From positions 1 through 42,555 of the IMG/VR virus record IMGVR_UViG_3300012942_000018: a DNA stretch of 42,555 nucleotides; one strand, written 5' to 3'. Both the position numbers and the translations under genes were made by a program. Positions 879 to 4,757 of the stretch are shown piece after piece (the stretch's first letter is position 1; each line of letters opens with the position of its first letter). The notes under the pieces were generated by a model. The model was not told where the DNA came from. It did no database searches and was given only the letters and a program-made list of their open reading frames with translations. The DNA comes from a virus. Taxonomy: Duplodnaviria > Caudoviricetes.

Positions 879-892
879 GTCATCGCTTACAG
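879..892 (+). promoter_or_regulatory. Phage motif GTCATCGCTTACAG
   Basis: Intergenic copy of the recurrent 14-mer. Confidence 0.8.
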
Positions 893-1853: not shown

Positions 1854-1945
1854 GTCCGGGTAACTCAGAGGCAGAGTAACCGCGCGCGCCCTGGTAGCTC
1901 CGGGAACTGAAAGGGAAGTCGCGGGTTCGAATCCCGCCCCGGACA
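1854..1945 (+). ncRNA. tRNA-like RNA with an aberrant anticodon/variable region
   Basis: 7-bp acceptor GTCCGGG/CCCGGAC, D arm ACTC-AGAGGCA-GAGT, T arm GCGGG-TTCGAAT-CCCGC; no canonical anticodon loop; no encoded CCA. Confidence 0.8.
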
Positions 1946-4105: not shown

Positions 4106-4256
4106 AGTCCTTAAAGCCGGATGGATTGTAACCTTCACGCCTCATTACGGCGGTATCAGCGTCGAGGCCAGGCGACACCATGATGAGCCTGTTCTGACCG
4201 CGAGGGGCGTCACGCCCCGGAAGGCCCTGAAGTACGCCTTCGCCAAGATCCGGTGA
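4095..4256 (+). CDS. Small basic hypothetical protein (53 aa)
   Basis: GGAG RBS, GTG start, fills the gap. Confidence 0.55.
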   Translation: MLRKVLKAGWIVTFTPHYGGISVEARRHHDEPVLTARGVTPRKALKYAFAKIR

Positions 4257-4288
4257 GCGGCTCCAAGGCGCGCGGGGTTTGCGCGCCG

Positions 4289-4302
4289 GTCATCGCTTAC
4301 AG
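4289..4302 (+). promoter_or_regulatory. Phage motif GTCATCGCTTACAG
   Basis: Directly after a GGCGCGC/GCGCGCC hairpin. Confidence 0.8.
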
Positions 4303-4342
4303 GGATGCACGGAACCGCAGAACCCCAGATTACGGAGGCAAG

Positions 4343-4702
4343 ATGACTGAGCGGCATGAGGCGAAGGTTGGCGATCGGATCAAGGTCAGCTTCAAGGGGG
4401 TCATTCGCAACGTCCGCGATTACGATCACAGGGGATGCACGCACATTGAGACGGACTCCGGGCACAATCATTACGTGTACTTCGGAGGGCAGTTCACGTC
4501 GGGCAAGGAGACGCCCCAGGGCGTTACGGTTGAACTGGTCGAGCCCCCGGAGCCTGCCTACCTGACTGGCCGTGCGTACATCGACGCTGACGGGGACGTG
4601 TTCATTCGGAACTACGACGACGGATGGACTAGCGCTAGCGGGACTAAGTACACGGACAGTTATGCGAGCCGCCCGCTTCGGCTTCTGACCGCTCAGGACT
4701 AA
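4343..4702 (+). CDS. Hypothetical protein
   Basis: GGAGG RBS supports ATG 4343 over 4253. Confidence 0.8.
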   Translation: MTERHEAKVGDRIKVSFKGVIRNVRDYDHRGCTHIETDSGHNHYVYFGGQFTSGKETPQGVTVELVEPPEPAYLTGRAYIDADGDVFIRNYDDGWTSASGTKYTDSYASRPLRLLTAQD

Positions 4703-4714
4703 CTAGCCTTTAAG

Positions 4715-4757
4715 CACGAAAGCCCCTCAGGCCTTCAGGGACTGAGGGGCTTTCGTG
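4715..4757 (+). terminator. Intrinsic terminator
   Basis: 16-bp stem CACGAAAGCCCCTCAG/CTGAGGGGCTTTCGTG. Confidence 0.85.

Follow-up and report, generated by a model that had tools for sequence, protein, structure and literature searches.

Why would a phage carry a gene that has the body of a tRNA and lacks a usable anticodon arm? The window analysed here, the complete 42,555-base genome of a soil phage with direct terminal repeats, raises this question through a 92-nt tRNA-shaped element at 1854..1945 (+) that encodes no CCA. An initial annotation, read from the letters of the DNA, described perfect acceptor, D and T arms with U8, A14, G15, G18, G19, C48 and a TTCGAAT loop; parsing of the element and a match to the Rfam tRNA model confirm this description. 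That annotation did not mention that a self-complementary octamer occupies the anticodon position, the conserved feature by which the RNA is defined. The element and its parts are as follows:

1854..1945, + strand: tRNA-shaped non-coding RNA gene, 92 nt (sequence, parse, ARAGORN, Rfam)
1854..1860, + strand: 5' strand of the acceptor stem, 7 of 7 pairs with 1938-1944; discriminator A1945
1863..1877, + strand: D arm, 4 of 4 stem pairs, A14, G15, G18, G19
1879..1881, + strand: what is left of the anticodon stem, pairing with 1913-1915 at 2 of 3 positions
1882..1889, + strand: self-complementary octamer GCGCGCGC, its centre at tRNA positions 33/34; predicted to pair between two molecules
1890..1904, + strand: accessory hairpin, 5 bp with a 5-nt loop
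1905..1909, + strand: AAC-N-G motif, common to Ibantik-type members of the family
1921..1937, + strand: T arm, 5 of 5 stem pairs, TTCGAAT loop
1821..1849, + strand: upstream 8-bp hairpin (1821-1828/1842-1849), its 3' end 4 nt before the RNA

The outer parts of the element are those of a tRNA. U8 and A9 are present, C48 falls at 1920 and G15 can form the Levitt pair with it; the acceptor branch is of the 7/5 type, the acceptor ends are open and the D arm precedes the T arm. The Rfam tRNA model scores the element at 45.7 bits (E 1.4e-07), and in the whole window it is both the sole ARAGORN tRNA call and the sole Rfam match at the gathering score. The middle is another matter. It was said to be about 20 nt too long, and indeed 43 nt separate the D and T stems, against 22-23 in a class I tRNA. 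The 17-nt arm proposed at 1879-1895 does contain the pairs and the mismatch ascribed to it (A-U, C-G, C-G, G-U, C-C), but the parse is wrong: these pairs have a probability of at most 0.04, and the hairpin at 1890-1904 is favoured instead (about 0.6). The 25-nt variable region proposed beside that arm is likewise replaced by a short stem, the octamer, the hairpin and AAC-N-G, a motif that possibly makes a tertiary contact. The centroid structure comprises the acceptor, D and T arms and the 1890-1904 hairpin, with 1878-1889 unpaired. With U33 and purine 37 also absent, the claim that there is no usable anticodon arm is sound. Taken alone, the whole element folds no better than its shuffles (z -0.52); tRNAs rich in GC often fold no better than shuffles. 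The separate hairpin reported just upstream is real (z -3.45, with 0 of 200 shuffles as stable) and is not kept as such across the family.

What is the setting of this gene? The genome encodes a PHROG family 95 integrase, which we take to be of the serine-integrase type, together with terminase, portal, major head and tape measure proteins, a DnaB-like helicase, a primase and an endonuclease VII. The phage records matched by the helicase (1,479 of 1,479) are all actinobacterial phages or unnamed Caudovirales, so the host is likely actinobacterial. A search with a 5-kb region found no cultured close relative and matched just an endonuclease VII fragment; the capsid protein is about 31% identical to its best matches, and the protein downstream of the element retrieved two weak loci. 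The element lies in the replication region between co-directional genes, a 51-codon ORF that ends at 1809 and a 135-codon ORF that starts at 1977; the neighbour gene is phrog_10893. The flanks hold neither a sigma-70 promoter nor a U-tailed terminator, and an upstream 8-mer found at three loci does not exceed chance in the window. An attP remnant was also considered and ruled out by reasoning, the element being whole and the serine integrase about 11 kb distant. Nine copies of a 14-nt box (0.02 expected) are confined to the early arm:

879, 4289, 4787, 6154, 6538, 10384, 40452, 41539, + strand: 14-nt box GTCATCRYTTACAG, from a repeat search
40412, - strand: 14-nt box GTCATCRYTTACAG, forming a divergent pair with 40452
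879..892, + strand: nearest 14-nt box upstream of the RNA, about 960 nt away

The box is likely to be a phage-specific promoter or operator and, given its nearest copy at 879, the RNA probably lies within an early transcript. Elsewhere in the window, the ORF at 4253-4702 is followed by a near-perfect inverted repeat (4715-4757; 19 bp, 5-nt loop) that is probably a terminator without a U tail.

The element is not alone. BLAST with it matched a stretch between genes of Streptomyces phage Heather that bears no annotation, and this stretch in turn led to phiC31, Lilbooboo, Vash, Euratis, Samora, Sebastisaurus, RemusLoopin, Ibantik, AbbeyMikolon and Nesbitt. Further homologues occur in phiBT1 and in the Gordonia phages BrutonGaster and Miskis. 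The family comprises phiC31, a further 12 cultured actinophages and numerous uncultured phages. Close relatives carry this odd RNA and not a normal tRNA, the outcome that the initial annotation had named as a refutation. Records label the homologues tRNA-Gly, tRNA-Leu, tRNA-Ala, tRNA-OTHER or not at all, and Rfam reports RF00005 alone on 20 family loci. Pattern scans of viral, metagenome and genome contigs, one of them returning at least 120 stretches (an estimated 300), found family loci that span 21% to 70% GC; one further scan gave 17 loci, none of which parsed as a long non-canonical element, barring parser misses. A narrow pattern run over 185,579 species genomes had 10 matches, two of which resemble family members. 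Of these two, L195 adjoins an anti-repressor gene and L187 is apparently identical to viral record L081; the family therefore looks phage-borne.

In phiC31-like phages the element has a fixed place between gp13 and gp14. Beyond this group no shared partner protein was found among the family's neighbours (71 of 87 neighbour ORFs scanned against PHROGs). The phiC31 gp14 family (phrog_1106; L043:2676-3071, L051:1476-2021) adjoins the RNA in phiC31-like phages and lies about 480 nt from it in the unrelated AbbeyMikolon; it is a possible partner of the RNA in these lineages and is not the neighbour in the window.

Members of the family follow a common order: D arm, 2-4-bp stem, palindrome, optional hairpin, single-stranded linker, closing strand, 4-7 variable bases and T arm. 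An anticodon-stem remnant of 2-3 bp is present in 15 of 15 members that share a register. The window's element matches that of Ibantik piece for piece (stem, octamer, 5-bp hairpin, AAC-N-G and closing strand, here 1913-1915), the hairpin of the Ibantik type having a tetraloop in place of the 5-nt loop; many members have no hairpin. In the phiC31 type, two bases are followed by a hexamer and a tetraloop hairpin; in the orthologue from phiBT1 the accessory hairpin is gone and just a hexamer with G-U ends is kept. Another layout puts the hairpin first, then an AACA linker and a 6-nt palindrome near the variable region. In this layout a palindrome of at least 6 nt stands at centre 26 in 11 elements, against 2.2 expected, and examples are:

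L088; L205:406-489; L220:121-205; L221:812-897; L227:137-219; L248:1989-2071: hairpin-first layout

Other tRNA-like genes came up in the same scans. L021:2995-3113 and L002:3874-3993 have an extra T-loop-like hairpin at the anticodon position and resemble two-headed mimics. In low-GC phages, hairpin inserts of 24-29 nt occupy the anticodon loop of tRNA-Arg(TCT)-like genes (L004:2995-3097, also L013, L018 and L019) and tRNA-Gly(GCC)-like genes (L010:2990-3085, also L017). Four tRNA genes from DPANN-type archaeal MAGs (L188, L190, L193, L194) have short anticodon-loop inserts that are probably ordinary archaeal introns; these genes dilute the blind set described below.

Is the tRNA body maintained, or is it left over from a tRNA that once worked? 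In 24 aligned members 97.5% of cells are paired. Each of the 7 acceptor pairs shows changes on both strands, and the Levitt pair 15:48 covaries, being A-U in 11 and G-C in 11. The bases of the D stem and T loop were fixed by the search patterns and are not counted as evidence. The 37 core members (44 palindrome-bearing rows minus L104, L110, L123, L129, L212, L228 and L244, which were dropped by eye) form 27 clusters; 7 of 7 acceptor pairs are found in 21 of these, even as the clusters show 25 different acceptor 5' strands and use all four discriminators. Such covariation indicates that the tRNA body is under structural selection, and it upholds the earlier proposal that selection acts on tRNA shape, not on decoding.

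These data bear on another explanation of the locus, in which it is a tRNA that has decayed or contains an intron, a functional tRNA-Arg(GCG) or an assembly error. ARAGORN does force the element into tRNA-Arg(GCG), and the tRNA labels of the homologues would fit, except that the labels disagree with one another. The forced arm is hardly populated in the predicted ensemble and lacks the bases expected at 33 and 37. Removing one block from the loop region does not recreate a canonical arm in the window; it does so in 4 of the 37 core members. Compensatory changes occur throughout. Positions 1500-2600 of the window are identical, without differences, to a contig of run X1, which argues against an assembly slip; X1 may be the window's source, and so the match is not independent. 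We regard this explanation as largely refuted and extremely improbable.

Could the RNA instead carry an amino acid for some purpose outside the ribosome, with dimerisation secondary if it occurs? The intact acceptor stems would suit this, as would the CCA that some members encode. Yet the discriminator and pairs 1:72 to 3:70 vary freely, both taking every form across the family, so that aminoacylation identity elements are not conserved. The 71 neighbouring proteins scanned against PHROGs include no aminoacyl-transferase or synthetase. A role as a non-ribosomal amino-acid carrier is very unlikely.

CCA is encoded in 7 of 27 clusters and not in the other 20, the window among them; the background among nearby 3-mers is 1.1%, and 164 of 265 canonical tRNAs encode it. 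Our own parser places a canonical tRNA within 150 nt in 7 of 27 clusters, and Rfam together with record annotations puts real tRNAs 5-13 nt away in L081, L186, L204, BrutonGaster and Miskis. Members stand inside or at the head of tRNA arrays, as expected for a gene that is processed like a tRNA.

We now turn to the palindrome. In the window alone it would not attract attention: an 8-nt palindrome appears in 16% of shuffles of the 43-nt middle. The case is different across the family. MAFFT misregisters palindromes in alignment A1, and the palindrome tests were therefore anchored on the D stem. At the window's exact register, 14 of 122 long non-canonical elements have a palindrome of at least 8 nt, where shuffles give 0.7 expected and a maximum of 3 in 40; the counts include related sequences, and the shuffles ignore relatedness. 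None of 265 canonical tRNAs has even a 6-nt palindrome at this register. Palindromes of at least 6 nt at centres 6-11 occur in 44 of the 122 and span 22 different hexamers, with all four self-complementary kinds of central dinucleotide represented (CG 22, GC 15, TA 4, AT 3). Among sites whose two outer pairs are Watson-Crick, self-complementarity extends to the four inner bases in 14 of 21 cases at the window's register. The corresponding figures are 25 of 51 for centres 7-10 and 6 of 130 for control positions.

A search blind to the palindrome, with clusters formed at 80% identity, gives a similar picture. At centres 6-10 a palindrome of at least 8 nt is present in 15 of 40 clusters (0.9 expected) and one of at least 6 nt in 19 of 40 (3.2 expected). 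After removal of six seeds, the sequences from which the AAC-N-G motif was read, the counts are 9 of 34 for at least 8 nt and 13 of 34 for at least 6 nt. No palindrome stands at these centres in 21 of the 40 clusters, five of which have one further 3'. A second blind scan, for GC-only octamers, found at least 8 nt in 11 of 24 clusters against 6.0 (P 0.01); its 6-nt test was not significant (17 of 24 clusters against 13.5, P 0.09).

The closest view comes from the phiC31-like alignment, in which 10 syntenic or near-identical rows with letters at this site are joined by L072 and L141. Here the hexamer takes three forms, 12 of 12 rows are self-complementary and 36 of 36 cells are paired, with compensatory change in two of the three pairs, the central pair among them; phiBT1, with its G-U ends, is the exception. 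By these tests, none of whose counts is fully corrected for relatedness, the palindrome of the family is not a matter of chance. Its centre consists of adjacent bases that cannot pair within one chain, so the retained self-complementarity points to pairing between chains. Palindrome-preserving covariation at adjacent bases also backs the symmetric bridges of OLE and GOLLD as described by Kretsch et al. (PMC12286853), and the family shows the kind of covariation used there for the OLE B3 and GOLLD B8 contacts.

What might such an RNA do? On balance we favour a model in which the element is a processed, non-decoding tRNA mimic that homodimerises through its palindrome. Probably, host RNase P and 3' trimming would release the RNA from the early transcript, and CCA would then be added; a 7-bp acceptor is reported as a major determinant for RNase P (PMC4201824). 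The RNase P cut would leave the upstream hairpin to cap the 3' end of the upstream mRNA. Two copies would then probably pair symmetrically via the palindrome, with two elbows and two acceptor ends facing outwards, and the dimer would reach in trans a two-headed shape like the one that L021 and L002 suggest. The self-duplex of the window's octamer is predicted to have 8 bp and -16.7 kcal/mol. Cofolding, which shows loop-loop contact solely via strand-swapped stems, pairs the window's palindrome across chains at -18.1 kcal/mol against about -10.5 for permuted controls, a gain of about 7 kcal/mol. Across the 37 core members, the minimum-energy dimer has the palindrome centre paired across chains in 18, with a median gain of about 2 kcal/mol over controls.

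The last step of the model concerns function. The dimer would not decode and would present no anticodon loop to anticodon nucleases, and it might perhaps soak up host factors that bind the elbow or acceptor end, for example CCA-modifying antiphage toxins. Both antiphage toxins that alter the 3' end of tRNA and tRNA-cleaving nucleases are known (PMC11559606, PMC11541572, PMC12673091). Probably uncharged and without an anticodon loop, the mimic could absorb such toxins or nucleases and leave translation undisturbed. Among possible functions we favour this one, in which the RNA may be a two-headed decoy that draws off tRNA-attacking or tRNA-binding proteins, a role that the initial annotation had also proposed. 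This is the weakest step of the model, and because neither a target nor a shared neighbour gene emerged we hold it as a tentative suggestion.

The palindrome need not be a dimer site. It could form a small hairpin within the chain, or serve as a symmetric protein-binding site in DNA or RNA. Palindromes of 8-12 nt can indeed give hairpins of 2-4 bp with a tetraloop, monomer predictions partly agree, and cofold support for the dimer is mixed. Against a hairpin, the inner four bases would be its loop, where the self-complementarity observed (14 of 21 against 6 of 130) is needless, and the hexamers of the phiC31 type are too short; against a protein-binding site, the sequence varies over 22 hexamers. 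We consider either role quite unlikely.

A further alternative retains the processing step of our model and nothing else. The elbow and acceptor would direct RNase P and RNase Z-type cuts in an early polycistronic mRNA, as the initial annotation had allowed, and the middle would be a mere spacer. The position of the element between co-directional genes, some 960 nt downstream of a repeated early-region box, suits a signal acting in cis, as do the hairpin just upstream, which could protect the cut mRNA, and the fixed gp13-gp14 location in phiC31-like phages. Other facts do not: flanking genes are not shared, many members belong to tRNA arrays whose other genes already provide cut sites, and CCA is encoded far above background. 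A pure processing signal, though possible, leaves the covarying, in-register palindrome unexplained. We think it unlikely.

How does the proposed homodimeric mimic compare with known RNAs? It resembles canonical class I tRNAs (RF00005) in its 7-bp acceptor, D and T arms, U8, A14, G18, G19, Levitt pair and gathering score. Unlike them it has no 5-bp/7-nt anticodon arm, U33 or purine 37, and bears a palindrome and an optional hairpin instead; nor does the family conserve identity elements. tmRNA was not detected by ARAGORN or Rfam, and the element is 92 nt long with a full D arm. Of the Infernal models suggested as checks, the one for tRNA matched and those for YrlA and tmRNA did not.

A YrlA-like RNA had been among the first guesses. 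YrlA Y RNAs, which occur in phages too, are tRNA mimics that have D and T arms and whose Levitt pair covaries; in M. smegmatis, RNase P cleaves the YrlA RNA and CCA is added to it (Chen et al. 2014, PMC4201824). According to the same paper, however, YrlA is permuted, its acceptor stem-loop lying between the T and D arms, and it has a Ro60-binding motif with Ro60 encoded within 4 kb. The element keeps the normal order of arms, the complete window genome has 0 matches to TROVE (PF05731), and Rfam YrlA has none up to E 10 on the window and none at the gathering score in 20 family loci. The YrlA suggestion is not supported.

Allo-tRNAs and irregular polycistronic tRNAs are likewise non-canonical tRNA-like genes, and some of them do not act in translation; the authors connect these with toxin-antitoxin loci (Mukai et al., PMC5389517; Krahn et al. 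2020, PMC7609411). As presented in those papers, their main defining trait is an 8/4 or 9/3 acceptor branch and they keep an anticodon, in contrast to the 7/5 element, which has none. The main text of Mukai et al. does not contain 'palindrom', 'self-complementary' or 'dimer'. By these tests, the element is not a canonical tRNA, YrlA, tmRNA or allo-tRNA.

For the dimer contact, the nearest likeness is to OLE, GOLLD and ROOL, whose symmetric kissing loops are revealed by covariation that preserves a palindrome. GOLLD and ROOL come from phages and often lie near tRNA islands, like members of this family (Kretsch et al. 2025, PMC12286853). Those RNAs are large, many GOLLDs exceeding 800 nt, and make five or more contacts per chain (PMC12286853). 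The present family has an 80-92-nt tRNA body with one palindrome, is predicted to form a dimer, and has no Rfam match to them. In retroviruses a short GC-rich palindrome in the dimer initiation loop joins two identical RNAs, on another scaffold and in another role. Dimers of tRNAs via self-complementary anticodons are incidental, and there the anticodon still decodes. In its working, the element would combine a tRNA mimic with a symmetric kissing contact. A literature search, with older subscription-journal papers on phiC31 outside its scope, found no description of the family, and no tRNA mimic built to dimerise through the anticodon position appeared in the literature searched. Fremin et al. 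2023 (PMC10690425) give five tRNA-overlapping candidates without the palindrome feature, and overlap with their 10,006 candidates is possible.

The phage tRNA mimic with a self-pairing palindrome in place of the anticodon is real, conserved and apparently undescribed. A wider reading, which we hold as doubtful, is that the family is an undescribed class of phage RNA, ranging from high-GC actinobacterial to low-GC hosts, in which the palindrome has taken the place of the anticodon and makes a self-assembling sponge against tRNA-targeting immunity. Natural RNA homodimers of proven relevance are described as rare (PMC12286853). The finding gathers scattered phage tRNA calls, wrongly labelled Gly, Leu, Ala, Arg or OTHER, into a single RNA family for which a clear prediction of structure can be made. 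The copy in the early region of phiC31 had stayed unannotated; because this Streptomyces phage is genetically tractable, both the dimer and its function are testable at once. The decoy, if true, would be an RNA-only counter-defence, and it would bear on why phages carry tRNA-like genes that do not decode.
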